This document shows, piece after piece, positions 7,106 through 44,352 of a stretch of 64,000 bases of DNA. Source of the DNA: Candidatus Latescibacterota bacterium (GTDB lineage Bacteria; Latescibacterota; Latescibacteria; Latescibacterales; Latescibacteraceae); NCBI GenBank assembly GCA_016927495.1, contig JAFGMP010000009.1, positions 937 through 64,936 on the forward strand, written 5' to 3'. Position 1 is the stretch's first letter. Each line of letters opens with the position of its first letter. The notes under the pieces were generated by a model, which was given only the letters and a program-made list of their open reading frames with translations, did no database searches and had not been told where the DNA came from. Position numbers and translations under genes: made by a program.

Positions 7106-7189
7106 TAAAATTATGGGCCGGACCTCATTGAGGGAGCCCGACACCGTCGATCGATTGACACGGTGCAAATTCAAAAGGAGTTAAGTAAA

Positions 7190-9289
7190 ATGGCAGGCAG
7201 AGCTATGCAGACCGCTGTTAGCGGTATACGTAACCAACAGACATATATGGATGTTATAGCAAATAACATCTCAAACTCGGGCACCATGGGGTACAAAAAG
7301 GGCCGAATAACTTTTGAGGAATCTTTCTATCAACTGCTTCAGGGCGCTTCAAGACCTCCCGGTGACCAGGGCGGTGTTAATCCGCTTCAGATCGGAAACG
7401 GAACATCGGTCGGTTCAATCGATACCTTGTTTACACAGGGCCCAATCGAATCAACAGGGAACCAGAGTGATATTGCGATCCGCGGCGAAGGATTTTTTGT
7501 GGTTGCCGAAGGTAACCAATATTACTATACACGAGCCGGATCATTCCAGTGGGATTCCAATGGGACTATGGTTATACCTTTTAACGGAATGAAAGTACAG
7601 GGAAGAATTGCAAACGAGAATGGAGTTGTCAGTGATGGTAGTCCTATACAGGATATCGTTGTTCCGTTCGGTACGGTTGACCCTGCCAAGACTACGACCG
7701 AGGTTAATTTTGTCGGTAATCTGGATTCCGCCGCAGAACCTTTAGGCAATGTTTTACGTACCGCCCGTATGTATTCACGGGAAGTTGCGGGAAGCACTAC
7801 CGATATCAACGGTTTATATGCAAATGGAGATGCCGACCTTCAGATAACTGGAATGTCTTCACTTTCGACTACTATAACGGTTACAATTACCGACGCTACT
7901 ACCGGTGATCACTCGAAAACTTTCACCTATGTTGCCGAGGATACCGGCCCATCAAGTCTGGATTTTAACACGCTTGATAATCTCGTGGCGGAAATAAACA
8001 GTGAATTCAGTACATACGTAAATGCCGCTGTTAACAACGATGGCGCACTCAGATTTAATAATCTTGGCGCGGCTACGAATACAATTACTTTATCAAGCGT
8101 GAATTCGGTTCTGGATAAAGCCCTGGGTTCAGCTAACGGCATTATCGGTGACAAGACGACAGACCAGTTTTCACATGTTGCGGTAGCTTCGGATAATCTG
8201 ACTACGCTTCGTAATTATCAGGGCGTTAATCTTGGCCTTACATTAGCCAATACAATTACTGTTGACGGACGAGTAGGCGGAACAGCGATTAATACTTCCT
8301 CGATTAATGTTAATGATGGTGAAGGCAATAGTCTTACTTATGGTGAATATGTTAAGCTTATCAAGGATGCATTCGGAATTACCAACACGACGGCAGTTGA
8401 AATCGATTCGACGACCGGTGCGATGATCATCAATGCAGACGGAGGATTGGAAAACGAAATCACCGCAGTAAATATTTCTACCAACTCAAAAACATCGGGA
8501 GGTACAGCACAGGTATTTGACAGTGTTTTCGATGCCACTATCGGCAACTGGAACCAGACGCAGGAAGCTGAGGATGTTACTCATTCTGCCGCAGTACAGG
8601 TATTCGATTCACTGGGTAACACTCATACGCTTACGCTTGAATTTAAGAAGGATGTGACACTTCCCAATCGATGGGAATGGAGTATCACGGTTCCTGAGCC
8701 GGCTGAATTATCGGGTGGATCTTCAGGTTCGGTATCATTTGATTCAAACGGTTTTATTGAATCATTTTCTTATTCTCAGGGTGCGAGTTCTTTAACATTC
8801 GATCCTAAAAATGGCGCTGAAGTCCCTGTGGATATAGTACTTGATTTCGGTACAATCGGAAGCGCAGATGGTATTACCCAATTTGCAAGCACCTCGACGG
8901 CTATTGCCCGTGATCAGAACGGATATTCTGCCGGTACGCTGGACAACGTAGTAGTGGGCCAGAACGGAACTATCACCGGTGTGTTCACGAATGGTAACTC
9001 CAGGACTCTCGCAAGGCTTGTTCTTGCAACGTTTAATAATCCTGCGGGTCTTCTCAGAGTAGGAGATAATACCTTTGATGTTTCATCAAATTCAGGGCTT
9101 CCGATATATGGATTTGCCGATTCATCAATCAATGCCACGCTTACACCCGGAGCTGTCGAAATGTCCAATGTTGATATCGCTGAGGAATTTACCAGTATGA
9201 TAATGGCTCAGCGTTCGTTTCAGGCAAATGCACGAACAGTGACAACATCGGATGAAATTCTGCAGGAGACGGTCAATTTGAAACGTTAA
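7190..9289 (+). CDS. flgE: Flagellar hook protein FlgE (about 700 aa, large central insertion)
   Basis: N-terminal rod/hook motif (AMQTAVSGIRNQQTYMDVIANNISN) and C-terminal Flg_bbr_C (NVDIAEEFTSMIMAQRSFQANARTVTTSDEILQETVNL). An AAGGAG RBS sits at 7175-7180 and the ATG at 7190. The ORF-track start at 7163 is probably too far upstream. Confidence 0.9.
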   Translation: MAGRAMQTAVSGIRNQQTYMDVIANNISNSGTMGYKKGRITFEESFYQLLQGASRPPGDQGGVNPLQIGNGTSVGSIDTLFTQGPIESTGNQSDIAIRGEGFFVVAEGNQYYYTRAGSFQWDSNGTMVIPFNGMKVQGRIANENGVVSDGSPIQDIVVPFGTVDPAKTTTEVNFVGNLDSAAEPLGNVLRTARMYSREVAGSTTDINGLYANGDADLQITGMSSLSTTITVTITDATTGDHSKTFTYVAEDTGPSSLDFNTLDNLVAEINSEFSTYVNAAVNNDGALRFNNLGAATNTITLSSVNSVLDKALGSANGIIGDKTTDQFSHVAVASDNLTTLRNYQGVNLGLTLANTITVDGRVGGTAINTSSINVNDGEGNSLTYGEYVKLIKDAFGITNTTAVEIDSTTGAMIINADGGLENEITAVNISTNSKTSGGTAQVFDSVFDATIGNWNQTQEAEDVTHSAAVQVFDSLGNTHTLTLEFKKDVTLPNRWEWSITVPEPAELSGGSSGSVSFDSNGFIESFSYSQGASSLTFDPKNGAEVPVDIVLDFGTIGSADGITQFASTSTAIARDQNGYSAGTLDNVVVGQNGTITGVFTNGNSRTLARLVLATFNNPAGLLRVGDNTFDVSSNSGLPIYGFADSSINATLTPGAVEMSNVDIAEEFTSMIMAQRSFQANARTVTTSDEILQETVNLKR

Positions 9290-9695: not shown

Positions 9696-9723
9696 TTGAT
9701 ATAAATATTTCAGATGGTATAAT
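9696..9723 (+). promoter_or_regulatory. Possible sigma-70-type promoter (TTGATA-N16-TGGTATAAT) upstream of flbD-motAB
   Basis: -35-like TTGATA at 9696-9701, and an extended -10 TGgTATAAT ending at 9723. It sits in the 490-bp AT-rich flgE-flbD spacer. Whether the host sigma-A uses this consensus is uncertain given its FCB-type RpoD. Confidence 0.3.
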
Positions 9724-21680: not shown

Positions 21681-22550
21681 ATGATGGAAAAACGCAGAGA
21701 TACTGGTGAGAGAAGAATTACCGGCGACCGCAGAAACATATTTGATCGCAGGAGCCACACCGATCGCAGAGCATCGGATGACCGTAGAAATCAAAACGAT
21801 TCGAAAGGCCTGTCAACATATCAAAAGATGTCTGTTGACAAAAAACGTGACGAGATGGTCAAAAACCATCTCAATCTGGTTAATTTCGTTGTTGCACGGT
21901 TATCGATCAGTCTGCCAAACTGGTTAGACAAACGTGATTTGATCAATGCTGGAGTAATAGGACTTATTGATGCGGTTAATCATTATGATCCATCAAAGGG
22001 AGTCAAATTTGAGACCTATGCATCAACCCGTATCAGAGGTGCAATTATCGACGAGTTACGCTCCCTTGATTGGATTCCACGATCGACACGGACGAAATCC
22101 AGGGAGATCGAATCTGCAATTTCGGGTCTGATTCATAAACTGGGACATATCCCAAGTGACGAAGAAGTATCAAAAGAACTTGGATGGGATATTGATAAGT
22201 ATCATAAGGCACTTGAACAGGTATCGGGTACGACACTGTTATCGCTGGATGAATTAATAACGACATCATCGGGAAGCGAACCGGTAAAAAGACTCGATAC
22301 GGTTTCAGGCGATGATGAAAACACTCTCGATACCATAGAGCGCCGTGAACTTGTAGAGAATGTTGTCATAATTCTCGGCACTCTTTCCGAACAGGAAAAA
22401 CTCGCTATTGCACTTTATTATTATGAGGAATTGACACTTAAAGAAATCGGTTTGGTTCTGGAAGTATCGGAATCAAGGGTGTCGCAGATTCATACTGCGG
22501 CAATTTTAAAATTGAGAGCTAAATTGAGGTCGTTGTATTCCGGCTCTTAA
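21681..22550 (+). CDS. fliA: Flagellar sigma factor FliA (sigma-28) with arginine/aspartate-rich N-terminal repeat extension
   Basis: Sigma-70 region 2/3/4 motifs (NLVNFVVARLS..., YYYEELTLKEIGLVLEVSESRVSQIH). Size and position after flhG fit FliA. The N-terminal roughly 45 aa carry DRR-type repeats. Confidence 0.85.
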   Translation: MMEKRRDTGERRITGDRRNIFDRRSHTDRRASDDRRNQNDSKGLSTYQKMSVDKKRDEMVKNHLNLVNFVVARLSISLPNWLDKRDLINAGVIGLIDAVNHYDPSKGVKFETYASTRIRGAIIDELRSLDWIPRSTRTKSREIESAISGLIHKLGHIPSDEEVSKELGWDIDKYHKALEQVSGTTLLSLDELITTSSGSEPVKRLDTVSGDDENTLDTIERRELVENVVIILGTLSEQEKLAIALYYYEELTLKEIGLVLEVSESRVSQIHTAAILKLRAKLRSLYSGS

Positions 22551-22912
22551 TGGGAGATTTACTCATGGTTCGGCCGATAGAACTTACGGATTCACTTTCA
22601 AAGGTCCAGGCTGTCGAGCAAATGCAGCAGGATGCAAAAACTCGTCCCGAAGCATTACATCAATTTCAGAAAACGCTTACTGACAAACAGACTGAACAGT
22701 TGAGAACTTCACCGAATCCGGTGCCTGAAAGCGACCAGGTTGTTATCCATGTTAATGAGCAGGAAAAAGATAAGCATAAAACTGCGGAAGATGAACGTGA
22801 TAGCAAAATGCACAGGGATGGTGAAAAACAAGATCCGAAAGAGAACGGACAAAACGCAAGCAGAAAAAAAGACGGTCATACTTCCCCTGGCCATATTGAC
22901 ATAAAAGCCTGA
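22550..22912 (+). CDS. Hypothetical acidic/basic low-complexity protein, translationally coupled to fliA (TAATGG overlap)
   Basis: 120-aa ORF whose ATG overlaps the fliA stop. No recognisable domain. The C-terminal half is K/E/D-rich and low complexity. Confidence 0.4.
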   Translation: MGDLLMVRPIELTDSLSKVQAVEQMQQDAKTRPEALHQFQKTLTDKQTEQLRTSPNPVPESDQVVIHVNEQEKDKHKTAEDERDSKMHRDGEKQDPKENGQNASRKKDGHTSPGHIDIKA

Positions 22913-23248
22913 TTCGACCTCTTAATCCGGCGGTTATTTTCTCCCGGAATATTTATATCATATTGCATGTTAGTCTGGTACGATATTGGTGCGGTATTTT
23001 GAATGATAATAGAGGGGCTTATGCTCCTTGTTTCAATAATATTTCATTAAAACAATGTATTTTTTTAAAAAAAATTTCGGAACAAAATGATGAATCGGTA
23101 AGCGATGACGGTAATTTACGATCGGTTGCCGGTATATATGAAACGGATAAGGTTATTCTGGAAATTATGACATGCAAATAACAAATTTTTATATGGTTTG
23201 TTATTGATATTTTCTCGATTTTGATAGAAGTATTTCCTGTAAAACAGG

Positions 23249-24868
23249 ATGTGTTCTGTGCGAATAAATCCTCAAAAAATTGCCGAAAACCTTATGATAA
23301 AACAAGTTGAAACAAAAACTGTTACAACTGGAGATTCGGCAAATTCTGTCGAAATAAAAAATATTGGTGAGACTTTGTCCGGCCGATTATTGTCGCTGTT
23401 TGACACAAAAGGCGGTAATGTACCTCGCTCGACAATTCTCGACATTGCATCGAAACTTGCGGCTTTGGATATGAAACCCTCTGATGTTGATGGTGATATC
23501 GCGCTGAAAGCGCTTTTGCTACAACATAATAATATTCCCCTGAGTCGGGAGTTACTTCTGGACAGCTTTGAGAGCGATCCGGCGGTTTTCACAAAATTGA
23601 ACACTCTTGTCGATAGTGTACTCACTGCGTTGAGTGATTCGAGAGTAACCGGTGAGATAAGGACAACGCTTGGTATATTCATTAAAAATCTTGACTCATT
23701 ATTCAGGCCTGAGTCGATGCAGGAAGCTGTCCGAAATACTTTGACCGATCATGTATCGGAATGGTCCCGCTCAATTGAGTTGAAAATTCTTTCACTTCTG
23801 TTAAATAATCCTGAAGCAATTCGAGCCGCACCGATGGAACATGTATCCTCTGCCGAAGTGATGCTTATGCTCTCGGATGCTGCGCAGAAAAATCCTCAGA
23901 TAGACGTATTGATGGAAAAGCTTGGTGACATAACCGGTAAATTATTATCACGGTTATATGAACTCAATCCGGGAACTGATGAATTTAATGTCGGTATCAG
24001 ACAGGCAGTTGCCGTATTATCCAAACATCTGACGGATCTTATCCCGGATATTAACGCAATTTTACAAAACTCGGGTAATCCGATCCTTTCTGATGATGTT
24101 TTAGCCGTTTTTTTCAGTGAACACATACAGTTATTGGAGGAAAAACTGCTCAGCGCACTTGAATCCGTATCTTCGAAAAGCGTGATGAGTGGATCAGTAA
24201 TACGGAGTGAGGTAAATATACCGTTGCACAAAATGTTGAGAAACAGCGGTATGTCGTTTGAATGGCAATTACTGGCATGGTATCGTTCGGGTAAAAATCC
24301 GGAAAGACTTCGCGAGCTTATGCAGCGTGATATTAAGGGCATTCTCGATAAGTTTATGACCGATCTGAACTTATATAGAAAAAAAAGCTCCGGCAAAAGT
24401 ATATTAAAAAACCTCGAACGTGAAGCAAAATCTGTGCTTGACTGTATTACTCAGCGTCAGATTTCCAATATTCTGCAGGATCGTGGAACCGGTGGGAAAG
24501 TATATTTCGAACTGCCGCTCGGCAATCTCCGCGATAAAGATAATGCACGGGTAACTGCAGAAGGTGGTCAAAAATCAGAAGAAAATGGGTTAAATCCGGA
24601 AAATTTCAATCTTTCGTTCGATGTCGAGACTACCGGACTGGGACGATTGTATGTTACTATGAATGTACAGAAAAAAAACATTTCACTCGAGTTTTTAGTG
24701 AGGGATGATAATGTTATCACTCAGGCGCATACAATTGAACATGAGCTTGTCGACTCATTGTTTTCACGGGGATTTTCCGTTAATTCGTTAAGTTTTGATG
24801 TAATCAGAGATAACATCGCGTTCAATAAGAATAAATCGAATAGACGCAGTATGGATATAAAGGGATGA
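23249..24868 (+). CDS. Second FliK-like protein (Flg_hook C-terminal domain)
   Basis: The C-terminus (NFNLSFDVETTGLGRLYVTMNVQKKNISLEFLVRDDNVITQAHTIEHELVDSLFSRGFSV) resembles the FliK/Flg_hook domain. It is paired with an FlhB-CTD-like gene, as in Firmicutes FliK-like/YlqH pairs. The start is uncertain, possibly MIKQVETK at 23294. Confidence 0.55.
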   Translation: MCSVRINPQKIAENLMIKQVETKTVTTGDSANSVEIKNIGETLSGRLLSLFDTKGGNVPRSTILDIASKLAALDMKPSDVDGDIALKALLLQHNNIPLSRELLLDSFESDPAVFTKLNTLVDSVLTALSDSRVTGEIRTTLGIFIKNLDSLFRPESMQEAVRNTLTDHVSEWSRSIELKILSLLLNNPEAIRAAPMEHVSSAEVMLMLSDAAQKNPQIDVLMEKLGDITGKLLSRLYELNPGTDEFNVGIRQAVAVLSKHLTDLIPDINAILQNSGNPILSDDVLAVFFSEHIQLLEEKLLSALESVSSKSVMSGSVIRSEVNIPLHKMLRNSGMSFEWQLLAWYRSGKNPERLRELMQRDIKGILDKFMTDLNLYRKKSSGKSILKNLEREAKSVLDCITQRQISNILQDRGTGGKVYFELPLGNLRDKDNARVTAEGGQKSEENGLNPENFNLSFDVETTGLGRLYVTMNVQKKNISLEFLVRDDNVITQAHTIEHELVDSLFSRGFSVNSLSFDVIRDNIAFNKNKSNRRSMDIKG

Positions 24869-25167
24869 ATAAGAGGCAATCTAAAAAAAATATCGAGGGA
24901 CGAAAAGCCGCTGCAGCTCTTCGTTACAAAATGGATGAAGATGTTGCTCCGAAACTTGTAGCTAAAGGAACAGGTAGAATTGCAGAAAAGATAATCGAAA
25001 CTGCCAGGGAAGCAGGAGTACCTATTTATGAAGATCCGGATCTTATTGCTCTTCTTTTGACTTTGAACATAGGAGAATTTATTCCACCGGAACTGTACAT
25101 TTCTATTGCGGAAGTACTGGCTTTTATATACCGTTTAAACAAGAAATCGTTTGAATCTGTTTATTAG
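24865..25167 (+). CDS. FlhB C-terminal-domain-like protein (YlqH-like)
   Basis: 100-aa protein (KLVAKGTGRIAEKIIETAREAGVPIYEDPDLIALLLTLNIGEFIPPELYISIAEVLAFIY) resembling the soluble C-terminal domain of FlhB/YscU but lacking NPTH. It overlaps the upstream gene by 4 nt. Confidence 0.7.
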   Translation: MNKRQSKKNIEGRKAAAALRYKMDEDVAPKLVAKGTGRIAEKIIETAREAGVPIYEDPDLIALLLTLNIGEFIPPELYISIAEVLAFIYRLNKKSFESVY

Positions 25168-25187
25168 TTTTTTCACAGGGACATATT

Positions 25188-26024
25188 ATGGCTGATTCTT
25201 CGGAAATAATCAAGAACATGCGAGTTCTCTTTGACATAAGCGCCCTTATTCGTACCGACACTAAACTCGAACTGAAGTTTGAACAGGTATTGGAGAAAGT
25301 GAAGGATGCCGCTTGCTGTCAATCGGTAAGTCTTTTTATAGCTGATGACAGCGGAAAACTTGAGGAAATCGCGACAATCGGAACACCGGTAGAACTCATT
25401 AAAACAATTGATTTTGACATGGGAAGCGGATTTAGCGCCTGGGTTGCAAAACAGCGGAAATCGGTGTTAATACCCAATCTCAGAGAAAGCAGGCATAAAC
25501 ATTTCAGGTCATTCGTCTCAACCCCTCTGATTTCCAATGACCGTCTGATAGGTGTTATGAATCTAGGACATGAAGAACCGGATGCTTTTACCGAAGAAAA
25601 TCTGCAACTCTTCGAAATAATTGCTGAACAGCTTGCACTGATGATTGAGCGAACTAATTATGAACAGGAACTGATAAAGAAAAATGAAGCGCTTGTTGAG
25701 GCTCAGGATGAAATTAAAAAACAGAATAAACAAATTATTGAAATGGAAAAATTTCATGTTATGGCACAAATGGCGGCCTCTGTCAACCATGAAATCAACA
25801 ACCCTTTAACATCGGTGATAGGAAATGTTGAACTAATACTTATGTCACGGCAGGATTTGGACGATATTGTCAGGAAAAAGCTAACGGTTGTTCTTGAAGA
25901 AGCGCACCGTATCGGGAAAATTACACAGAAACTGCGTGATATGAAACGGATTGTTGTAGAAGATTACCTGAAGAAAACGGAAGAAAAGATGATCGACCTC
26001 GACTCTTCAAGTTCATTAGATTAA
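25188..26024 (+). CDS. GAF domain plus HisKA (DHp) protein lacking an ATPase (HATPase_c) domain
   Basis: N-terminal GAF-like region (SVSLFIADDSGKLEEIATIG...LIGVMNLGHEE), a coiled coil, then an H-box (MAQMAASVNHEINNPLTSVIGNVELIL). The ORF ends about 60 aa later with no G1/G2 boxes. A terminator follows, so no downstream ATPase ORF exists. Confidence 0.7.
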   Translation: MADSSEIIKNMRVLFDISALIRTDTKLELKFEQVLEKVKDAACCQSVSLFIADDSGKLEEIATIGTPVELIKTIDFDMGSGFSAWVAKQRKSVLIPNLRESRHKHFRSFVSTPLISNDRLIGVMNLGHEEPDAFTEENLQLFEIIAEQLALMIERTNYEQELIKKNEALVEAQDEIKKQNKQIIEMEKFHVMAQMAASVNHEINNPLTSVIGNVELILMSRQDLDDIVRKKLTVVLEEAHRIGKITQKLRDMKRIVVEDYLKKTEEKMIDLDSSSSLD

Positions 26025-26145
26025 ACGGAAAATCTTTCCTGAAAAGGGAATAAACTTCTTTCAGCTTGTGTGAAAAATGATGCCTAATATAAAAATAGAA
26101 TGAGAAATCTTGATGTAAAGCAAATAATATCAATATATTAAGTAG

Positions 26146-26177
26146 ACCGGCGATTAAAAATATCGCCGGTTTTTTTA
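26146..26177 (+). terminator. Rho-independent terminator (ACCGGCGAT-taaaaat-ATCGCCGGT then TTTTTTT)
   Basis: Perfect 9-bp GC-rich stem, 7-nt loop and a 7-T run, about 120 nt after the GAF-DHp gene. Confidence 0.8.
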
Positions 26178-26178
26178 T

Positions 26179-26192
26179 GGCATGACTGTTGC
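26179..26192 (+). promoter_or_regulatory. Candidate sigma-54 (-24/-12) promoter TGGCATgactgTTGCA upstream of flgF-flgG-flgA-flgH-flgI-flgJ
   Basis: GG at 26179-26180 and GC at 26191-26192 with 12-nt spacing. Matches TGGCAC-N5-TTGCA at 10 of 11 conserved positions. It lies about 140 nt upstream of flgF, immediately after the terminator. Confidence 0.55.
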
Positions 26193-26330
26193 AATTGAGT
26201 ATGCTGGAATTAAAATTTGATACATTGAATTCATGTTAACAACTCATACCGGGTCATGACAGACTAATCATATTCATGTATTAATAGGGCTTTGAAAATG
26301 AAACAAAAAAATAAACTGTGGGGAATATAA

Positions 26331-27074
26331 ATGGTAAAAGGGATTTATCTTTCAGCCTATGGTATGATTCCACGAATAAACCAGCAGAACGCCATAGCGA
26401 ATAATCTGGCTAATATGTCGACACAGGGCTTTAAAAAGACCGATATCTTTCTTCGGGAACTTATAACTGCTGACAATGCGCTTGATCATGCCCTTGGGGC
26501 TGATCGGTCACAGGTTGCCGAAGATCCCAGAATTAATTATACCCAGGGCACATTCGAAGTCACTGGTAACGATTTTGATCTTGCATTGAATGGTCCAGGT
26601 TTTCTTAGGGTTCGTGACACCGCCGGTAATATTCTCTACACCCGTAACGGCAGGTTTTATCTGGATAATAACGGATTTATGGTTAACAACGAGGGTATGT
26701 ATCTGTTGAATGACCGTCTTAATCTTATCAATATTCAGGGCGGGGAAGTCATTATTTACGGTAACGGGAATATTTTGGTGGATGGAGAAGATGCGGCTAC
26801 GATCGGCCTCGCCGACTTTGCTCCTGCCGATTATGTTAATTTACAAGCAATAGGCAAGCAACAGTTTCTAAAACCTGCAGCGGTTAATGAAATAAGGCCG
26901 AGTGTAGCGACTGTATTTATGCAGGGGCATCTGGAAGATTCGAATGTGGATTCTATAAAATCGATGGTGGATATGATCGAGACGTTCAGGATGTTCGAAT
27001 TAGGACAGAAATCGATACAAATTCAAGATCAGTCACTGCAGAGAGTCGTTAATGAAGTTGGAATAGTACGGTAA
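26331..27074 (+). CDS. flgF: Flagellar basal-body rod protein FlgF
   Basis: Flg_bb_rod N-terminus (AIANNLANMSTQGFKK) and Flg_bbr_C (DSIKSMVDMIETFRMFELGQKSIQ). Confidence 0.85.
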   Translation: MVKGIYLSAYGMIPRINQQNAIANNLANMSTQGFKKTDIFLRELITADNALDHALGADRSQVAEDPRINYTQGTFEVTGNDFDLALNGPGFLRVRDTAGNILYTRNGRFYLDNNGFMVNNEGMYLLNDRLNLINIQGGEVIIYGNGNILVDGEDAATIGLADFAPADYVNLQAIGKQQFLKPAAVNEIRPSVATVFMQGHLEDSNVDSIKSMVDMIETFRMFELGQKSIQIQDQSLQRVVNEVGIVR

Positions 27075-34525: not shown

Positions 34526-35353
34526 CTATTGAGCGGTGAGTTCTTTTAATTTTTCCCGTGCGAGATCAGCCTCTTCAGATTTAGCGTAGCTTTTTATTAC
34601 CTGGTTCAGGGTTGACCGGCCACTTTTGACATCGCCTTTTTCTATCTGGGCAAAACCAATTTTCAACAGCGCCGCCCGCGCTTTGGGGGATTTTGAATAT
34701 TTTTTACGTACGGTTTCAAACTCTTTGATTGCGAGGTCATATTTTTTTTGCGCATAGATTGACTCGGCAAGCCAATATTGTGCATTAGGAGCCAGGGAAT
34801 GATCGGGGAATTGTAGTATAAATGATAAGAAACGGCTTTCAGCAAGAGCAAAATTATTATCCTCAATGTCTGTAAGCGCAGATTCGTATAACTTTTCGGG
34901 ATCAGGTTTAATATTTGTGACCGGAGATGAGTAAGCATTTGTATTATCTGCAGAAGGTTGGGAAGACGGCGCTGACACAGATTTATTCTCTCCGGCTTTT
35001 GATTCCAGTCCTCCATATAACTGGATTGTTTCAAGTTTCGACAGCAGGTTTTTCAACAGATAATTTATATCATCCTGCCGGGCTGTTATCATGGAGATGT
35101 TTTCATTTTGCTCGCGGGATTGTGTGCCGAGTATAGCGCGCATGCTCTGTGATAACATTATTTGTTCATGAATCAGGCTGTCAATCATGGAAACTGAACT
35201 TTCGAGTGCAGACAGGCGTTCGCTGAAATCACGCGCATTGATTTGTGATTCACGGTGCATTTCAGTAAAGTCTGTTTTTGTCGCACAGGAAACAAATATA
35301 ACAGTGCAGCATATTAAACACGCCTGCAACTTCAGGATGCTCATATTCATCAC
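34526..35353 (-). CDS. ybgF: Tol-Pal system protein YbgF/CpoB (TPR repeats)
   Basis: Signal peptide, coiled coil and C-terminal TPR repeats (YQLAESIYAQKKYDLAIKEFETVRKKYSKSPKARAALLKIGFAQIEKGD). It is the last gene of the tol-pal operon. Confidence 0.75.
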   Translation of the reverse strand: MMNMSILKLQACLICCTVIFVSCATKTDFTEMHRESQINARDFSERLSALESSVSMIDSLIHEQIMLSQSMRAILGTQSREQNENISMITARQDDINYLLKNLLSKLETIQLYGGLESKAGENKSVSAPSSQPSADNTNAYSSPVTNIKPDPEKLYESALTDIEDNNFALAESRFLSFILQFPDHSLAPNAQYWLAESIYAQKKYDLAIKEFETVRKKYSKSPKARAALLKIGFAQIEKGDVKSGRSTLNQVIKSYAKSEEADLAREKLKELTAQ

Positions 35354-35502
35354 ATTTCACCTTACCATGATCGATACAATTTTGCCATAAAAAAGACAGT
35401 AGTCAGAAGACTGAAATTTAAACCAATGAATGTGTGCGCATTATCGGGATATCATCTTTTTAAAATCTGTGTTCAGTCTGCTGACTACTGTAGTGAAAAT
35501 AA

Positions 35503-36039
35503 TTATTGCGATGTTATTTTGAACTCGCCCCGACGGTTTTGAGACCATGAGGATTCGTTATGGCCTGATGAAACAGGTCTTTCTTCCCCGTAGGAAATGG
35601 TCGAAATCCGTGAGCTTGAGATGCCGTAATCGATTAAATACTGTTTAATCGCATCGGCGCGCCGCTGTCCGAGTGCCATGTTGTATTCATCGGTACCGCG
35701 TTCGTCGCAATGACCTTCGATTCTGATTCTGATAGTGCTGTTGTCACTGAGAAGCCGTGCATTGTTACTTAAATTACTTCTCTGGTCAGATTTGATATCA
35801 GATTTATCGAAGTCAAAATAAACGGTATTGAACTGAGATTCACTGATAGCGACTTTTTCGACAATTTTACGTTCCGGTTCTTTGACCTGTGGTTTTGGAG
35901 CAGGCTTCTTTTCCTGTACGACAGGCGCCGGTTTTGGAGGTGGTGTCTCCGCTTTCTTTTTTGCACAACCATTAAAGCTTGCGAGTGTCAATAAAAGACC
36001 GAGCACAAATACAACTGCAACGTTCCCTTTTTTGTACAT
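35503..36039 (-). CDS. pal: Peptidoglycan-associated lipoprotein Pal (OmpA family)
   Basis: Lipobox (LASFNGC) and an OmpA-like domain (VYFDFDKSDIK...IRIEGHCDERGTDEYNMALGQRRADAIKQYL). MYKKGN start at 36039 with an AAAGGA RBS. The ORF-track start at 36150 is too far upstream. Confidence 0.9.
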   Translation of the reverse strand: MYKKGNVAVVFVLGLLLTLASFNGCAKKKAETPPPKPAPVVQEKKPAPKPQVKEPERKIVEKVAISESQFNTVYFDFDKSDIKSDQRSNLSNNARLLSDNSTIRIRIEGHCDERGTDEYNMALGQRRADAIKQYLIDYGISSSRISTISYGEERPVSSGHNESSWSQNRRGEFKITSQ

Positions 36040-36076
36040 CTTGTAATCCTTTCTTAAGAGGTTTCGGAACTTTTCC

Positions 36077-37420
36077 CTACCGTCGCGAAGATACGCGTAT
36101 ATCATCTCCAGATGAGGTAGGTGCCCATGCTGGTGATAAACTATTTCCATCTTTTGTTAGGGGACGTATATCAGATCCATCCCAGTTCATGACAAAAAGG
36201 TTTTTCCCTCCCAATCTGTTTGATGTGAACAGAATCTTTAAACCGTCCGGAGACCATTTAGGATTTTCATTTGACCCGCTGCCGTAAGTCAGCATAATCA
36301 TTTCGTCGCCGTTAAGGTTTATCGTTGCTATATCAAAACCATAATCACTCAAAATGACAAATGCAATGAGATTTCCCCGTGGTGACCAGCATGGAGAGTC
36401 TTCATACGTATCGAGCGACGGCGTCAAACGCCGTATTCCCGATCCATCGCTGTTCATGATATAAACTTTAGGCATACCCGACCGGTCGGATGTAAATGCT
36501 ATCTTTGAACCGTCCGGCGACCATGTTGGCGATGAATCTATTCCGAAATGATTTGTCAGTCGTCTCAGGTCTTTTCCGTTCCTGCGACAGGTATATATCT
36601 CAGCGTTTCCATCTCTCGTCGATGTAAACGCGATAATGTCAGGGTTAGTAGGGTTCCATGAAGGAGATGTATTCAATCCGGGCCACTGTGAAATATCGAG
36701 AGTCTGTCCGGTATTGACATTAATCATAACAATAGCCCAGTTTTCGTTATTGAGTGACGAATAGGCTATAGATTCTCCATTGGAAGACCAACTCGGCGAC
36801 AGATTGAGGGTACGTGAAAAAGTCATCTGCCGTCGCCTTCTGCCATCAGGATCCATGAGAAAAAGGTCTTTATATTCACCGTTTGAACGTACAAAAGCAA
36901 TCTGTGAAGCCAAAGATCCGCGTACGCCGTTATATATGCCAATAATATCGTCAGCGATAACATGGGCGGTATACCACGGTCTGTCAGCAATAATCAGATA
37001 CTCTTCTTCGAACAGCGTGACCGCGGTTTTAAGATCTATTGCCTTTACACTGACTGCCGTACTATTCTGTGTTTCGATTCCGTAAATCAAACATGAAGCA
37101 TTTGCGGCCTTCCATATCTCGAACATACTTTGAGACGCACTCTGAAGGCTGTCGGGGATTTCTTTAACCTGGAATAATCCACAGTAATTAAGATCATCGG
37201 CAAGTGTCGACTTAACTTCAGAAATTAGGCCTGAAGTTCCGGTTGTATTAAAACCTTCTATTCCGATTCCAATTAGTTTGGAACCCCCCGCTCTGATAGA
37301 AAGCGTTACTTCCGATTGCGCAGACGCCTCAAAAACCGAACTAACTAATATAATATAATAAAAGAACAGGACATGCAAATAAAACGAATACTTTTTTTGA
37401 AAACAACTATTTTTATTCAT
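36077..37420 (-). CDS. tolB: Tol-Pal system beta-propeller protein TolB
   Basis: Signal peptide, TolB N-domain and WD40-like PD40 repeats (SPSWSSNGESIAYSS, SPSWNPTNPDIIAFTS, SPTWSPDGSKIAFTS). Confidence 0.9.
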   Translation of the reverse strand: MNKNSCFQKKYSFYLHVLFFYYIILVSSVFEASAQSEVTLSIRAGGSKLIGIGIEGFNTTGTSGLISEVKSTLADDLNYCGLFQVKEIPDSLQSASQSMFEIWKAANASCLIYGIETQNSTAVSVKAIDLKTAVTLFEEEYLIIADRPWYTAHVIADDIIGIYNGVRGSLASQIAFVRSNGEYKDLFLMDPDGRRRRQMTFSRTLNLSPSWSSNGESIAYSSLNNENWAIVMINVNTGQTLDISQWPGLNTSPSWNPTNPDIIAFTSTRDGNAEIYTCRRNGKDLRRLTNHFGIDSSPTWSPDGSKIAFTSDRSGMPKVYIMNSDGSGIRRLTPSLDTYEDSPCWSPRGNLIAFVILSDYGFDIATINLNGDEMIMLTYGSGSNENPKWSPDGLKILFTSNRLGGKNLFVMNWDGSDIRPLTKDGNSLSPAWAPTSSGDDIRVSSRR

Positions 37421-37432
37421 ATATTAATTTAC

Positions 37433-38047
37433 CTAAGCCGGATCATAAATAAAGTTTATATGTACACCCAGTCCATCTTCCTTAAACTCATCGGGCAGTG
37501 GAGCGAATGGATTTGATTTATGTATTGCATCGTAAGCCGATCTGTCGAATCTGACGTTGCTTGTTGGTTTTTCGACTTTGATTATACCCTTTATGGTGCC
37601 GTCTTTTGAAATGCGAAAATAAATGGTTGTCGAGTATGATTCATTCAATCTGGGATACGACCAATTGAGAAGGATTCTATCTCTTAAGGCTACAAGATAA
37701 TCAAGATCTACTTCGGCATCCGTTTGAATTCCGGGCAGTTGTGTCCCTTTCTTTTTTTCGCTTTGATTTGTCTGCTGAGTTTCCGTTGTCTTGGCAGTTT
37801 GTTTACGCCGTTTTACTCTATTCGGAATCGCTTCTTCAGGTTTTATCTGAACCTGCGGTATATACCGTTTCGGTTCCTCCTTTACAACCGATTGTTTTAG
37901 CAAGCGCTCAATTTGCTGCGGAGATACGGTGGTTATAGGAACAACTGTTTCCGTAACATGTTTCTTGACGCCAATAAACGAGGTAACAATCAAACCGGTA
38001 AATACGGTTATATGTCCCGCTGCTGAAAATATTATTTCCCGCCACAT
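37433..38047 (-). CDS. tolA: TolA/TonB-like energy transducer (TonB C-terminal domain)
   Basis: N-terminal TM, a K/E/Q-rich linker and a TonB_C-like C-terminus. It sits between tolR and tolB. Confidence 0.7.
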   Translation of the reverse strand: MWREIIFSAAGHITVFTGLIVTSFIGVKKHVTETVVPITTVSPQQIERLLKQSVVKEEPKRYIPQVQIKPEEAIPNRVKRRKQTAKTTETQQTNQSEKKKGTQLPGIQTDAEVDLDYLVALRDRILLNWSYPRLNESYSTTIYFRISKDGTIKGIIKVEKPTSNVRFDRSAYDAIHKSNPFAPLPDEFKEDGLGVHINFIYDPA

Positions 38048-38068
38048 AATGACTCTTCCGGTACGAAA

Positions 38069-38476
38069 TTATTTTTTTGAGGCTTTTGCAGAATCCCTGA
38101 CCACAAGCCCGACATTATCACCGCCGATTTCTTTCACATTGCTGAGAATATCGACAACCGTACCGTATGGAACCTTATCATCGGCATTGATAAACACCGG
38201 TTCTCCCGACCTCTTTTTCCAAACATCCTGAAATTGGCCGGTGAACTCTTCTGCTTTTACCTTTGTTCTGTCGATAAATATGGAGCCATCCTGTTTGACA
38301 GTCACGACAATTCCTTCGGTAATATTGGCTTTCGATGCTTTTCCTTTCGGTAAGTCAACGTCGATCAACTGGTTCATCGCAGGAGCAGTGATCATAAAGA
38401 TTATCAACAACACCAACGTCACATCGATAAGATTTACGAAAGATATCTCTGCCTTTATGGGGATCCGCGGTATCAT
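38069..38476 (-). CDS. tolR: TolR/ExbD biopolymer transport protein
   Basis: ExbD/TolR N-terminus (RIPIKAEISFVNLIDVTLVLLIIFMITAP). 135 aa. Confidence 0.9.
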   Translation of the reverse strand: MIPRIPIKAEISFVNLIDVTLVLLIIFMITAPAMNQLIDVDLPKGKASKANITEGIVVTVKQDGSIFIDRTKVKAEEFTGQFQDVWKKRSGEPVFINADDKVPYGTVVDILSNVKEIGGDNVGLVVRDSAKASKK

Positions 38477-39129
38477 GATTTGGTTCCTTTGGAAAAGAGA
38501 TCTTTCGTAAACTCGCTTATACGTTCGAGTTGATCCAGACAGTTGTTGATTCTCATTGACAGGAAATTATGTCCTGCCGATGCCGGAATCGCGACGCACA
38601 ATCCCGCAATGGTGGTCATGAGAGCTTCTGCAATACCCGGCGCAACCGTCGCAATAGTTGCATTACCCATCTGCTGAATGCTTATGAAAGAATACATTAT
38701 ACCGTAAACCGTTCCGAGAAGGCCTATAAGCGGGCTGGTGCTTGCTGTTGTTGCCAGCAATCCCATCCATTTCTGCAGTCTGTTGAACTCAAACATCACG
38801 GCATTGTTGATAATAGATTCCGGTGACAAAATCTGCCTTCCCTCATTTTGTGATTTGATAAGCTTTAACAGAATTATGGGGACGGTTCGAATTGTGCTGT
38901 TGCTGAAATTATTACAACTCTCCTCAATAAGCTTTATATTTGCCTGTCTGGTTAAAGACGTAACGAAACCTGAAATGGTTGTTTTATACCCTACGATGTA
39001 AAAATATTTATTAAGTATAATTGCCCATGAAATAATTGACAGCGATACAAGAAAAACGAGAATAGCTTTGGTAAAAAGTGTGGAACCGAGAATTAGCTTA
39101 AGCGCAGGTAAGGCTATTGAATTCGACAA
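38473..39129 (-). CDS. tolQ: TolQ/ExbB proton channel protein
   Basis: MotA/TolQ/ExbB 3-TM topology, 218 aa. The first gene of tolQRAB-pal-ybgF and overlaps tolR by 4 nt. Confidence 0.9.
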   Translation of the reverse strand: MSNSIALPALKLILGSTLFTKAILVFLVSLSIISWAIILNKYFYIVGYKTTISGFVTSLTRQANIKLIEESCNNFSNSTIRTVPIILLKLIKSQNEGRQILSPESIINNAVMFEFNRLQKWMGLLATTASTSPLIGLLGTVYGIMYSFISIQQMGNATIATVAPGIAEALMTTIAGLCVAIPASAGHNFLSMRINNCLDQLERISEFTKDLFSKGTKS

Positions 39130-39739: not shown

Positions 39740-39766
39740 TAAAGTTTCTGCGTTCTTAACCGATAA
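39740..39766 (+). promoter_or_regulatory. Sigma-28 promoter TAAAGTTT-N11-aCCGATAA driving fliC, with a leader of about 200 nt
   Basis: TAAAGTTT at 39740-39747 and ACCGATAA at 39759-39766. Spacing is exactly the consensus. Confidence 0.75.
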
Positions 39767-41307: not shown

Positions 41308-44300
41308 ATGGCGAGTACAGGATCAATAAGTTTTGGCGGTTTGGCGAGTGGTTTGGACACAACCCAACTCATTGAAAATCTGATGACGGTTGAATCAAAG
41401 CCCTTAACCAGGCTTGAGAATAAGAAAACGGAACTCGACAGCCAGTATGATACCTATACTACCATGAAGTCGAACCTTAATGAACTAAAAACGCTTGTAT
41501 CCGCGCTTAAAAGTTCGGATACCTTTGGAGTTTTCAGTGCCTCTTCTTCCGATGAAGAGGCACTGACACTCAGTGCTTCAACCTCGGCAAATGAGGGTAC
41601 TTATTCAATTAAAATCCTATCATTGGCTCAGGCTGAAACATTGTCAAGTAACTCATATGCATATACTGAAAACAATCTTAATCTGACAGGCGAAATTCTT
41701 ATAAACGGCAACAGTTTCAGTGTTAGCAGTACCGACTCGTTGATTGATATTCGAAATGGTATTAATGCTTTGGATGCCGGTGTTACGGCGAACATTCTGA
41801 AAGTTTCAAATGGCGACAACCGGCTTATTATATCCTCAGATACTGCGGGTGAAGAAGGTATTTTTATAGCGAATGTCGGCAGTACCGACATTCTTGGTAA
41901 TTTAGGCTTTACAGACGGTACGAAAAGTATACGCGAGTTTTCGAACGGGAGTGTTCTGTCTGCTTCATTTGAGTCTTCTACGGCAACCGTAGGCAGTCTT
42001 TTCGATATCTCGTCCGGTGTTTCCGGTAATGTTGCCATCAGGGATGAATCACTGAGTATCGATCTATCCAAAGACACGTTAAATTCCATCCGTGACAAAA
42101 TCAACAATCTTGGCCTTACCGGTGTAACCGCATCGATAGAATCCCAAACGGAAAATAACGCCACCACCTATCGCCTTGCAATTACAGGAACGGAAGATTT
42201 TACCGACGATAATAATATTCTTGAGACACTCGGTATTTTTGAGGGGGGAAGAAGTGGTATAAGCAAGACGGTTGAGACCGGAGTCTTGTATTCTAATAAT
42301 AGCGAAAATAGTGTAAAATATGCAGACAGCAATACACATTTAAGTCAATTGGGAGCAGAAGTTCAGGGGGGAGAAACCGAGACAATTACCATATCCGGTA
42401 CTAATCTTGATGGTTCGGCCGTTTCCAAAACGATCGAAATTTCATCAAATACAAATATCGATGATATTCTTACCGGTATTGAAGAAGCGTATTCAGGTAA
42501 TGTGACGGCGTCGATTGAAAATGGGAAGATACAGGTGAAGAGCAATGAAACCGGGTCATCTTCGCTTGAATTCAGAATTTTTGCACATAATGAAAATGGA
42601 GGCACACTCGATTTCGGTACAATCAGTACGACCGCAAATGGACGTGAACGATTATTAGCTGAAGGTGGGAATGCGCGAATACTGGTGAATAACATTGAGG
42701 TATCGAGAGACTCGAATGAAGTTAACGATGTGCTTACAGGCCTCAATTTAACCCTGAAAAAGGCTGATCAGGATACTACCTTAAGTATTACGGTGGAACG
42801 CAATACCGACGAAATCAAAGATAAAATTCAGGAATTTATTACTGTTTACAATGAGTTTATCGATTTCGTCGATGAGAATTCACAATATAACGAGGAAGAA
42901 AATGTAGCCGGACCTCTTCTCGGTGATCTGACAACAAGAAGCATTCTTTCCCGGATCAGGGAATCGTTACGGACAAGTGTTTTTGGCGATGATTTGAGTT
43001 ATAATCAACTTGTCCAGATAGGTATAGAGTCGACAGCAGATGGAAAACTGGAACTCGACACCGCAAAACTTATGGATGCAATGGATGAGAATGTGGATTC
43101 AGTAGTTTCTTTATTCTCAGCCACACGTAAGTCGAGTGATAATGACATCTCATTTGTCTATCATTCCGAAAAGACAAAATCGGGCACATACGCTGTAACC
43201 ATTACGCAGGCAGCAGAGCAGGCTGAAGTTATTTCGGATGTTTCACAGGAAGATATTCAATCGGGTACTCTGAAAATAACAGATAACTTTGGATATACTA
43301 TTGAGTTTGGTTATGATTCCGGCATGACGTTTGATGATATTGCAAATGCACTTGCTGTCGAGGCTCAGACTTCTTATAGCGAGATTTTAAGGTCGGATAC
43401 GGGACTATCGCAATCTGCCAATCAGGATCCGGTCACCCAGAATACGGCAATAAGCGAAATAGCCGGTGTTCAAATTAATGAAAACGATACGATTACCATA
43501 AACGGAACAAGCCGAAGCGGTAAAGAATATCAGAGAATCATATCACTTGGCGGAAGTGAAAATGTCACGATGCAGGATATTCTGGATGCGGTAGAAGCTA
43601 TAGCAGATAATGAAGTCAATGCCACAATCGACACCGGAGGCAAAATACTGATCGAAGATACACAGACCGGAACAAACAAATTCTCATTTTCTATCGAAAC
43701 TACTGTGGAAGGTCTGGATTTCGGTACAATTTCTTCGATACAAAAAGGCCGGAACCGTGTAAATATTGAGGCTTCTGTGACCGAAAATAACCGCTTGAGA
43801 ATAAATCATTCATCTTATGGCTCCAACAACACCCTGACAATTTCTGGAGGCAGCGGACTGGGTCTCGCAGATGGTGAATATGCCGGAGTTGATGTTGCCG
43901 GGACGATTAACGGTGTCACCGGTACCGGCAGCGGCCAGTCACTGAGCGCTTCAGCCAGCGATACGAATGCAAGAGGCATTGTAATAAGAACTAAAATTAC
44001 GCCTGAAGAACTCGCATTCGAGGGGCCGTCCCAGGGAACGATAACGTTAATATCGGGGATTGCCGATTTACTGTACAGCGATCTCAATGCCATAACTAAT
44101 CCGGTTGACGGATTCATTCAGGCGAAAATTGACAGTGTTGAGCTTTCGCGGGAAAGTGTCGCAACTCAAATAGATAATACAACAGCTCGTCTCGACCAAA
44201 GACGTCAGATGTATGTCAAAAAATTCACTGAACTCGAACGTGCCATGGCAAGCCTTGAATCGATGCAGCAAAGTTTATCGGCATCTCTTAGCGCACTGCC

Positions 44301-44322
44301 ATCAGCCAGTTTATTTTCTTAA
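41308..44322 (+). CDS. fliD: Flagellar filament cap protein FliD (HAP2), unusually long (1004 aa)
   Basis: N-terminal FliD_N (ISFGGLASGLDTTQLIENLMTVESKPLTRLENKKTELDSQYDTYTTM) and C-terminal FliD_C (DGFIQAKIDSVELSRESVATQIDNTTARLDQRRQMYVKKFTELERAMASLESMQQ). A roughly 600-aa central insertion lies between them. Confidence 0.9.
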   Translation: MASTGSISFGGLASGLDTTQLIENLMTVESKPLTRLENKKTELDSQYDTYTTMKSNLNELKTLVSALKSSDTFGVFSASSSDEEALTLSASTSANEGTYSIKILSLAQAETLSSNSYAYTENNLNLTGEILINGNSFSVSSTDSLIDIRNGINALDAGVTANILKVSNGDNRLIISSDTAGEEGIFIANVGSTDILGNLGFTDGTKSIREFSNGSVLSASFESSTATVGSLFDISSGVSGNVAIRDESLSIDLSKDTLNSIRDKINNLGLTGVTASIESQTENNATTYRLAITGTEDFTDDNNILETLGIFEGGRSGISKTVETGVLYSNNSENSVKYADSNTHLSQLGAEVQGGETETITISGTNLDGSAVSKTIEISSNTNIDDILTGIEEAYSGNVTASIENGKIQVKSNETGSSSLEFRIFAHNENGGTLDFGTISTTANGRERLLAEGGNARILVNNIEVSRDSNEVNDVLTGLNLTLKKADQDTTLSITVERNTDEIKDKIQEFITVYNEFIDFVDENSQYNEEENVAGPLLGDLTTRSILSRIRESLRTSVFGDDLSYNQLVQIGIESTADGKLELDTAKLMDAMDENVDSVVSLFSATRKSSDNDISFVYHSEKTKSGTYAVTITQAAEQAEVISDVSQEDIQSGTLKITDNFGYTIEFGYDSGMTFDDIANALAVEAQTSYSEILRSDTGLSQSANQDPVTQNTAISEIAGVQINENDTITINGTSRSGKEYQRIISLGGSENVTMQDILDAVEAIADNEVNATIDTGGKILIEDTQTGTNKFSFSIETTVEGLDFGTISSIQKGRNRVNIEASVTENNRLRINHSSYGSNNTLTISGGSGLGLADGEYAGVDVAGTINGVTGTGSGQSLSASASDTNARGIVIRTKITPEELAFEGPSQGTITLISGIADLLYSDLNAITNPVDGFIQAKIDSVELSRESVATQIDNTTARLDQRRQMYVKKFTELERAMASLESMQQSLSASLSALPSASLFS

Positions 44323-44325
44323 AAC

Positions 44326-44352
44326 TAAAGTTTGATAAAAACATGCCGATAA
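44326..44352 (+). promoter_or_regulatory. Sigma-28 promoter, perfect consensus TAAAGTTT-N11-GCCGATAA, upstream of fliS-fliT-like-flgM-like
   Basis: TAAAGTTT at 44326-44333 and GCCGATAA at 44345-44352, immediately after the fliD stop. Confidence 0.8.

Follow-up and report, generated by a model that had tools for sequence, protein, structure and literature searches.

The T3S4 domain is the part by which FliK and YscP-type rulers act on FlhB and YscU. FlhX was first studied in Helicobacter pylori, in which, as cited in a study of Pseudomonas putida, HP1575 partly substitutes for FlhB, and comparative studies use FlhX as a standard flagellar query. In Pseudomonas putida, the genes PP_4328-PP_4329 have been named fliK2-flhX and form one FliA-dependent operon of uncharacterized function, and a flhX-fliK pair has been mentioned for Nitratiruptor. 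Here, we describe a further case of this already named, uncharacterized pair in a stretch of 64,000 nucleotides from a Candidatus Latescibacterota bacterium (GenBank assembly GCA_016927495.1, contig JAFGMP010000009.1), which we call the window, and in which the pair is followed by the gene of a kinase-less protein with GAF and HisKA domains (GAF-DHp). The pair itself is already known; what is new is its placement beside GAF-DHp, which is spread across the FCB group (here, Fibrobacterota-Chlorobiota-Bacteroidota and allied candidate phyla). The analysis covers gene identities, domain content, conservation and synteny, from which we infer all binding partners and activities. The labels L001-L087 denote compared genomic loci, and all coordinates without such a label are those of the window.

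The three genes (the trio) and the terminator behind them are the following:

23258 to 24868, forward strand: fliK2, FliK-like, within the longest open reading frame (ORF) from 23249; Flg_hook assignment supported at the family level
24865 to 25167, forward strand: flhX, a free-standing FlhB_CC subdomain without a transmembrane region and without the NPTH autocleavage site
25188 to 26024, forward strand: GAF-DHp gene, GAF and HisKA domains without a catalytic ATPase domain
26144 to 26172, forward strand: intrinsic terminator, a hairpin followed by a T-run, closing the operon

An earlier note on this DNA had placed three forward-strand ORFs at 23249-24868 (539 residues), 24865-25167 (100 residues) and 25188-26024 (278 residues). 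The ORF list reproduces these coordinates, the strand and the overlap of 4 nucleotides (nt; ATGA) claimed between the first two genes, with a gap of 20 nt before the third, and profile matches bear out the identities given to the three products (FliK-like, FlhB C-terminal-domain-like and GAF-DHp). The true start of fliK2 is probably the GTG at 23258, which gives 536 rather than 539 residues, because the NCBI record has 536 residues, homologues begin at the equivalent V/M-R/K-I, and an AGGA lies 8 nt upstream. We think it fairly probable that the region is the 3' end of a long flhA-flhF-flhG-fliA operon carrying two separable modules, fliK2-flhX as an accessory of the export switch and GAF-DHp as a step of phosphoryl transfer.

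The fliK2-flhX pair

The product of the second gene is FlhX, a free-standing FlhB C-terminal subdomain. It matches Bac_export_2 with 69.8 bits over profile positions 262-335 of 335 only, and it scores higher on TIGR00789 (flhB_rel; 102.1 bits, E = 1.4e-29, the model cut-off of 117.35 not being reached) than on the FlhB model TIGR00328 (75.8 bits). From residue 16 onward, it can be aligned with the post-cleavage fragment (chain B) in the FlhB_C crystal structures 3b1s and 3b0z, from Aquifex and Salmonella. The resident genes to be compared with the pair are these:

2010 to 5876, forward strand: canonical fliK, 1288 residues, Flg_hook 62.4 bits
16421 to 17488, forward strand: canonical full-length flhB, 355 residues, Bac_export_2 419.7 bits, NPTH at residue 269

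FlhX is 50% identical to residues 274-352 of this FlhB, and it has GRKA at the site of the NPTH. None of 120 homologues has NP[TE]H, the consensus there being xRK(A/S)AAALRY; FlhX homologues measure 90-112 residues, with 59-83% identity. The profile search of 24865-25167 and the missing NPTH thus agree with the 100-residue FlhB paralogue described in the earlier note, and the window does hold a second Flg_hook-type protein and a second FlhB C-terminal domain besides the canonical ones.

The profile search of 23249-24868 against FliK had a divided outcome. The FliK2 of the window reaches 20.1 bits on Flg_hook (PF02120; E = 5.7e-4), under the Pfam gathering score of 29.8, and the match is found in all ten family members at E < 0.01, the best at 2.1e-10. 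The protein is composed of a disordered N-terminus of ~40 residues, a helical region of ~370 residues and a T3S4/Flg_hook-like C-terminal domain (about 448-519), just N-terminal of which lies the most conserved stretch (SGMxFEWRLLAWYRSG...DIKGIL, residues 333-366). Its AlphaFold2 model, built on a shallow alignment of 4 sequences, has a mean predicted local distance difference test (pLDDT) score of 60. With moderate confidence, helices cover residues 43-410, most blocks having a pLDDT of 65-85, and disorder is confined to residues 1-39, so that an extended, largely disordered N-terminal ruler is not seen in this 4-sequence model. The C-terminal domain (pLDDT 45-60) follows the order five strands, helix, one strand. 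From this low-confidence model, Foldseek gives a probability of 1.00 to the PscP switch domain 5cuk (E = 0.06) and of 0.98 to FliK_C 2rrl (E = 0.6); a PDB sequence search with the FliK2 family profile gave no meaningful match.

A word-indexed search returned 4 homologues of FliK2 only, and an exhaustive HMMER search of 1.84 billion representatives was required, which found 191 relatives at E <= 1e-3 and 50 at E <= 1e-30. The distant relatives have the C-terminal module in common and carry an extra N-terminal beta-rich domain of ~80 residues (L..G..V.G.V......YL....G..V.A.S) that is not in Pfam. Between FliK2 and the resident 1288-residue FliK, BLASTP detects no significant similarity, and a recent duplication of the resident gene was therefore rejected as the origin of fliK2.

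The 4-nt overlap of fliK2 and flhX (ATGA or GTGA) is kept in all nine related loci, which argues for translational coupling and stoichiometric production of both proteins. The Firmicutes (YlqH-type) pedigree that had been suggested for the pair found no support: it is not peculiar to Firmicutes, as the P. putida and Nitratiruptor cases indicate, and a literature search on YlqH did not substantiate a FliK-like/YlqH pair there. We propose that FlhX would act as a soluble mimic of the post-cleavage FlhB_CC subdomain. Since it resembles FlhB_CC and FliK2 has the domain that normally acts on FlhB_C, the C-terminal T3S4-type domain of FliK2 may bind FlhX, which could dock at the flagellar export gate in the usual place of FlhB_CC. 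FliK2/FlhX would then assist or back up the substrate-specificity switch, or buffer it.

Transcription signals and gene neighborhoods

In the window, the trio is very probably co-transcribed and ends at one terminator. The hairpin at 26144-26172 has an 11-bp stem (6 GC) followed by T7 (-14.1 kcal/mol), and the other terminator-like matches in 23249-26024 are weak stems of 5-8 bp, all inside coding sequence; the single closing terminator proposed from the letters alone is thus confirmed. An equivalent hairpin with T-run is present in L005, L007, L008, L009, L010 and L019. On either side of the trio lie the following features:

21681 to 22550, forward strand: fliA (sigma-28), upstream neighbor, TIGR02479 FliA_WhiG 260.6 bits, with Sigma70 r2, r3 and r4 domains
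22550 to 22912, forward strand: conserved ORF of 120 residues (ORF120), whose start overlaps the fliA stop by 1 nt, without a profile match
23140 to 23181, forward strand: 3' remnant of an SDH_alpha-like gene, with 90% identity to the final 42 nt of the L087 gene 3259-3984
26178 to 26193, forward strand: sigma-54 promoter TGGCATGACTGTTGCA for the flgF operon, an exact TGGCAY-N5-TTGCW match
26331 to 27074, forward strand: flgF, identified by profile match, first gene of the rod/ring/hook-associated-protein operon

The trio therefore lies between fliA and flgF, as had been noted, but it does not adjoin fliA, from which ORF120 and the remnant separate it.

In the consensus scan, good sigma-28 sites were confined, within the window, to 39740 and 44326. 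These are near-perfect promoters (TAAAGTTT-N11-(G/A)CCGATAA) at 39740-39766, before the flagellin gene fliC (39972), and at 44326-44352, before fliS (44455); therefore, the canonical FliA consensus is used for late genes. No sigma-54 site was found upstream of fliK2 in the scan, sigma-70 promoter matches stayed at chance level (18 found against 16.1 expected), and an Rfam scan of 22500-26500 gave no match, with no riboswitch or small RNA detected in the gaps. Because there is no sigma-28 site before fliK2 and a terminator only after GAF-DHp, the trio is best read as the tail of the fliA-containing operon and not as a self-contained operon. In L001, a near-consensus sigma-28 promoter (TAAAGTTT-N11-GCCGATAG) lies between flhX and GAF-DHp. 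The gap between these two genes ranges from -4 to 143 nt among the trio loci, the lower end being L019, in which they overlap by 4 nt. The flhX/GAF-DHp boundary is not fixed, according to the comparative data.

The sigma-54 promoter at 26178-26193, directly past the terminator, is the sole exact TGGCAY-N5-TTGCW match in the window. Allowing up to 2 mismatches, 31 of 34 loci have a sigma-54 site at 17-151 nt before flgF; these loci span Latescibacterota, Zixibacteria, Marinimicrobia, Fidelibacterota and Hatepunaea. Weaker sigma-54-like sites precede ORF200-fliK-flgD-flgE (at 1333) and motA (at 9715), and the window yielded no enhancer-binding protein. A search for a sigma-54 activator or response regulator met only one GAF kinase in the remaining large ORFs of the window, and only housekeeping genes and the L011 kinase downstream of GAF-DHp in other phyla.

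With one genome per GTDB species scanned, 521 relatives of GAF-DHp were found, and the best 80 of them were analyzed. The 87 compared loci are those with a match among these best 80, those obtained by exact-protein look-up, and the window itself; they come from Latescibacterota, Zixibacteria, Ignavibacteria, Gemmatimonadales, Marinimicrobia, Cloacimonadota and others. The gene fliA stands within 10 kb upstream of GAF-DHp in 66 of the 87 loci, and flgF stands downstream in 34. The fliK2-flhX pair is present at 8 loci, all Latescibacterota-like, and absent from the other 79. Moreover, the slot additionally holds a kinase-like paralogue at 38 loci and receiver proteins at 21. Its occupants, as assigned by Pfam on representatives, are the following:

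Latescibacterota-like (8 loci), slot: ORF120, fliK2, flhX
Zixibacteria and Ignavibacteria, slot: ORF120, DUF2225, one to three PilZ proteins, receiver
Zixibacteria and Ignavibacteria, after GAF-DHp: GAF-HisKA paralogue with a degenerate CA-like tail, three receivers, MCP-signal-like mini-protein, FapA
Marinimicrobia, Fidelibacterota and Hatepunaea, slot: two small proteins and a complete PAS kinase
Gemmatimonadales and Glassbacteria, slot: HDOD and TPR proteins
Cloacimonadota, slot: HDOD, then proteins of clusters c11 and c18

Even among Latescibacterota the occupants vary. In L011, a complete GAF-HisKA-HATPase_c kinase with the His-box GHEINNPLQ replaces fliK2-flhX, and in L007, GAF-DHp adjoins flgF, with a divergent fliC-flaG-fliD upstream and no pair. 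In Zixibacteria and Ignavibacteria (L003, L013, L014, L024-L026, L030 and others), a signaling island of ~10 kb fills the space between fliA and flgF. It is formed by DUF2225, up to 3 PilZ proteins, a lipoprotein-like ORF, GAF-DHp, a GAF-HisKA protein of 570-600 residues whose C-terminal "CA" has no G1/G2 boxes, three or four single-domain receivers, a 120-residue MCP-signal-like protein and FapA. L020 (DATKXY010000177.1), labeled "archaeon", carries a bacterial flhB-flhA-flhF-fliA cluster with a slot of the Gemmatimonadales/Glassbacteria type, and its bin is probably mislabeled or contaminated.

The earlier note had suggested that the three genes could form one unit that reports hook completion to a phosphorelay. 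In such a model, the pair would sense hook completion or export state and pass the information to GAF-DHp, which would feed a phosphorelay for flagellar genes. The tight packing (-4 and +20 nt) with one terminator in the window speaks for such a unit, as do the retention of the trio in 8 loci and one JGI contig with GAF-DHp identity down to 51%, the overlap of flhX and GAF-DHp in L019, and the proteins with a FliK2-family N-domain 0-1 genes upstream of GAF-DHp in Cloacimonadota and Marinimicrobia-type loci. Campylobacter FlgS, a cytoplasmic kinase, monitors export-apparatus assembly, which also counts for this idea. However, 79 of the 87 GAF-DHp loci do without the pair, L007 and L011 decouple the modules inside the phylum, and L001 has a promoter between flhX and GAF-DHp, where the gap also varies. 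Besides, the literature places the pair outside the FCB group (Pseudomonas putida, Nitratiruptor), and the tail (EDYL...EKMIDL) and His-box of GAF-DHp are the same with or without fliK2-flhX. Reporting of hook completion also fits poorly with a downstream sigma-54 operon encoding rod/ring proteins, which are needed before the hook. We thus think that a single functional unit is quite unlikely.

Because of the pair-free loci, the decoupling in L007 and L011, the L001 promoter and the unchanged tail and His-box, we regard the trio as a lineage-specific juxtaposition. The neighborhood survey that had been suggested recovered the trio in Latescibacterota-like loci, and elsewhere it recovered GAF-DHp without the pair. 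These gene orders suggest that GAF-DHp has long occupied the slot and that fliK2-flhX is a Latescibacterota-specific occupant, which would have been inserted in this lineage into a slot already ending with GAF-DHp, giving rise to the co-transcription seen here.

The kinase-less GAF-DHp protein

GAF-DHp matches GAF_2 (68 bits) and HisKA (49.1 bits) in Pfam, with no match to HATPase_c, in accordance with the sensor-like pseudo-kinase proposed before. Its AlphaFold2 model (pLDDT 83.7) comprises the GAF domain (residues 1-135), an 85-residue helix with His201, the DHp helix 2 and, past it, only a small beta-hairpin; nothing in the model resembles a catalytic (CA) domain, and the chain ends about 75-77 residues past His201. 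The GAF fold matches the GAF domains of PtsP, NifA and Nlh-type proteins. Residues N200, H201, E202, I203, N204, N205 and L207 are invariant among 16 sequences down to 32% identity, which gives the His-box NHEINNPL with the phospho-acceptor His201. Over 85 loci, the median length is 282 residues (range 167-323).

In HisKA proteins, an acidic residue at His+1 is needed for kinase activity, and Asn or Thr at His+4 for phosphatase activity (PMC3510030). As judged from its sequence, GAF-DHp cannot autophosphorylate, because it has no ATPase domain. Since the acidic His+1 and the Asn at His+4 are both invariant, it is more likely to be itself phosphorylated on the histidine than to be a mere dimerization decoy. 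ChpT and DivL, both mentioned in PMC9430884, are DHp-based proteins that relay phosphate or regulate another kinase without autophosphorylation. Most likely, in our opinion, GAF-DHp would serve a receiver as a phosphotransfer or phosphatase hub that is gated by a ligand and supplied by a separate kinase. The protein would form a dimer in which the GAF domain gates phosphoryl flow; a separate kinase would phosphorylate His201 in trans, or a receiver protein would do so by back-transfer, and GAF-DHp would hand the phosphate on to a receiver-domain regulator that controls motility or the expression of flagellar genes, or would strip it from that regulator. Literature searches found no flagellar GAF-HisKA protein, and this kinase-less family, which we found described nowhere, is the more novel and interesting part of the locus.

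The window also encodes one GAF kinase:

51415 to 52692, reverse strand: complete GAF-HisKA-HATPase_c kinase, 25 kb away, a speculative candidate as trans-kinase or partner of GAF-DHp

It is 25% identical to GAF-DHp over GAF plus DHp and 29% identical to the slot kinase of L011 (Latescibacteria bacterium 4484_107), the architecture of which it shares, and it adjoins an AIR-synthase-related gene. HAMP-HisKA proteins (P0100-P0119), also without a listed ATPase domain, were dropped from the comparison for their non-flagellar context (L004).

A kinase partner could also be silenced rather than used. GAF-DHp would then act mainly by forming DHp heterodimers with a complete paralogous histidine kinase, silencing or retuning it without carrying phosphate itself. 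Complete or near-complete kinase paralogues of the same cluster adjoin GAF-DHp in 38 loci, among them the PAS kinase of Marinimicrobia and the GAF kinase of L011, whose His-box GHEINNPLQ is nearly identical, and the regulation of a kinase by a pseudo-kinase is established for the DivL-CckA system (PMC9430884). A pure dimerization inhibitor, however, needs no invariant His, Glu and His+4 Asn across phyla, and in this lineage no kinase adjoins GAF-DHp, so that we hold such an antagonist to be unlikely.

The missing catalytic domain, together with the sub-threshold Flg_hook score of FliK2, might instead be taken as signs of decay in one or more of the three genes, with fliK2 and flhX as remnants of fliK and flhB duplications and GAF-DHp as a truncated kinase, all functionless; the gene remnant just upstream means that decay does happen in this locus. 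We consider this highly improbable. FliK2 keeps 17 invariant and 22 nearly invariant columns among homologues down to 23% identity and is no recent copy of the resident FliK, to which it has no detectable similarity. The conserved fliK2/flhX overlap and the lengths and identities of the FlhX homologues are likewise at odds with decay, and GAF-DHp keeps its length and His-box in more than 80 loci of about ten phyla, with 521 relatives overall.

For the account preferred here, an operon tail with two separable modules, several points weigh on the other side. The FliK2 of the window is below the Pfam gathering score, its C-terminal model is poor and the Foldseek E-values are not significant; since the model shows a folded helical N-region and no disordered ruler, the protein might neither be secreted nor act in the way of FliK. 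The consensus scan found no sigma-28 site upstream of fliK2 in the window and 6 relatives, unlike in P. putida. No kinase or receiver gene adjoins GAF-DHp in this lineage, and the sole kinase found in the window is the distant one with 25% identity. Finally, at 10 Cloacimonadota loci and 26 loci of Marinimicrobia type, GAF-DHp is closely preceded by proteins with the FliK2-like N-domain, so that the link between the modules could be older than assumed. In the latter, cluster c4 (26 loci within L035-L086, e.g., L038 8282-8566) consists of the N-domain as a stand-alone protein of ~100 residues, one gene upstream of a kinase-GAF-DHp pair. In Cloacimonadota, proteins of c18 and c32 (320-370 residues, e.g., L037 8761-9771) have it at the N-terminus and lie directly upstream of GAF-DHp. 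These N-domain matches to c4, c18 and c32 have E = 1e-12 to 1e-5 in a small database. Orthology of c18 with FliK2 is not claimed, given that hhalign yields E = 0.01 with a probability of 4% and that only the N-domain links them.

One may also conceive of an ancestral FCB-group checkpoint: a protein of the FliK2 family, alone or together with FlhX, would signal the export-apparatus state to GAF-DHp, which in turn would set the phosphorylation of a regulator. We regard this as decidedly unlikely. The regulator in question would control motor behavior or the flagellar genes that depend on sigma-54 or sigma-28, and the checkpoint, if true, would physically couple the specificity switch of type III secretion to two-component signaling.

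The wider cluster and comparison with described systems

The forward-strand flagellar cluster of the window starts with fliI, fliJ, an ORF, fliK, flgD, a flbD-like gene and flgE. It continues with motA, motB, fliL, fliM, fliN, fliO, fliP, fliR, flhB, flhA, flhF, flhG and fliA. After fliA, it comprises ORF120, the trio, flgF, flgG, flgA, flgH, flgI, the gene of a rod-binding protein, flgN, flgK and flgL, and fliC, fliD and fliS are found further along the window, beyond flgK-flgL. Between the end of flgK-flgL and the latter genes, a Tol-Pal-like cluster on the reverse strand (34526-39129) encodes a YfiO/TPR protein, an OmpA-family Pal-like protein, TolB, a TonB_2-domain (TolA/TonB-like) protein and a TolQ/ExbB-type protein. 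For axial and control proteins, FliK (1288 residues, 2010-5876), FlgE (708 residues, 7163-9289) and FliD (1004 residues, 41308-44322) are of unusual size, and under the ruler model so long a FliK would predict a long hook. At its N-terminus (21681-21800), FliA is extended by ~45 residues of Arg-rich, DRR-type repeats (RRDTGERRITGDRRNIFDRRSHTDRRASDDRRNQ); L001 and L005 have similar repeats.

ORF120 (cluster c3) directly follows fliA in 29 loci of Latescibacterota, Zixibacteria, Ignavibacteria and Delongbacteria. Its ends are conserved (N-terminus MVRPIE(L/I)TDxLSK, C-terminus HIDIK(A/V)), its middle is charged and of low complexity, and it has no match in Pfam or NCBIfam. Because flgM was not found in its usual place before flgN, one may speculate that ORF120 is a candidate anti-sigma-28 factor. 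The gap before fliK2 is 336 nt here and 27-103 nt in other relatives, and an SDH_alpha-like gene (serine dehydratase alpha, UPF0597-type) accounts for part of its length. In L087, the closest relative, such a gene lies between ORF120 and fliK2 (2696-3984), already split into two ORFs. Taken together with the remnant here, this means that the flagellar operon took up a non-flagellar gene in its middle part, which has since decayed.

The fliK2-flhX pair is widespread without a known function, and its location inside a core flagellar operon offers another context for its study. The kinase-less GAF-DHp is an almost constant component of flagellar clusters in Latescibacterota, Zixibacteria, Ignavibacteria, Gemmatimonadales, Marinimicrobia, Cloacimonadota and related lineages. 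Its gene terminates the fliA operon and in most cases shortly precedes a sigma-54 promoter. A conserved phospho-acceptor that lacks a kinase of its own suggests that flagellar control includes a phosphorelay or phosphatase step. Flagellar regulation in the phyla that bear it is essentially unstudied, and cultivable members are available in Ignavibacterium, Melioribacter and Gemmatimonas.

With regard to described systems, the FlhX of the window resembles that of H. pylori (HP1575; TIGR00789) in being a stand-alone protein of about 100 residues that corresponds only to the post-NPTH subdomain of FlhB, besides a full-length FlhB in the same genome. It differs in scoring under the TIGR00789 cut-off and in being embedded in the main flagellar cluster downstream of fliA. 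As in the operon described for P. putida, a gene for a protein with only a FliK C-terminal-type domain stands directly 5' of flhX in one operon, besides a canonical fliK. The P. putida operon has its own FliA-dependent promoter, whereas the consensus scan found no sigma-28 site upstream of fliK2 in the window or in 6 relatives, and in relatives of the window the preceding gene is only 27-103 nt away; a GAF-DHp gene follows here. With the canonical switches FliK-FlhB, YscP-YscU and PscP-PscU, the pair shares a T3S4 domain and an FlhB/YscU C-terminal domain, but FlhX has neither membrane anchor nor autocleavage site, and FliK2 has a predicted folded helical N-region and no BLASTP similarity to the resident FliK.

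GAF-DHp, in turn, shares with the HisKA sensor kinases that work with NtrC-type regulators (AtoS, NtrB and the flagellar FlrB, FleS and FlgS) a cytoplasmic sensor, a coiled coil and a His-box of HEIxNPL type, and AtoS is its best NCBIfam match. Its position in a flagellar cluster next to a sigma-54 promoter extends this likeness to the context, but without HATPase_c it is no kinase alone. Spo0B is a histidine phosphotransferase of DHp fold, and Spo0B, ChpT and DivL all keep a degenerate CA-like domain; a tail of this kind is found in Zixibacteria and Ignavibacteria in the paralogue beside GAF-DHp. GAF-DHp itself has the helical hairpin with His201 but no CA-like domain, and it adds an N-terminal GAF sensor.

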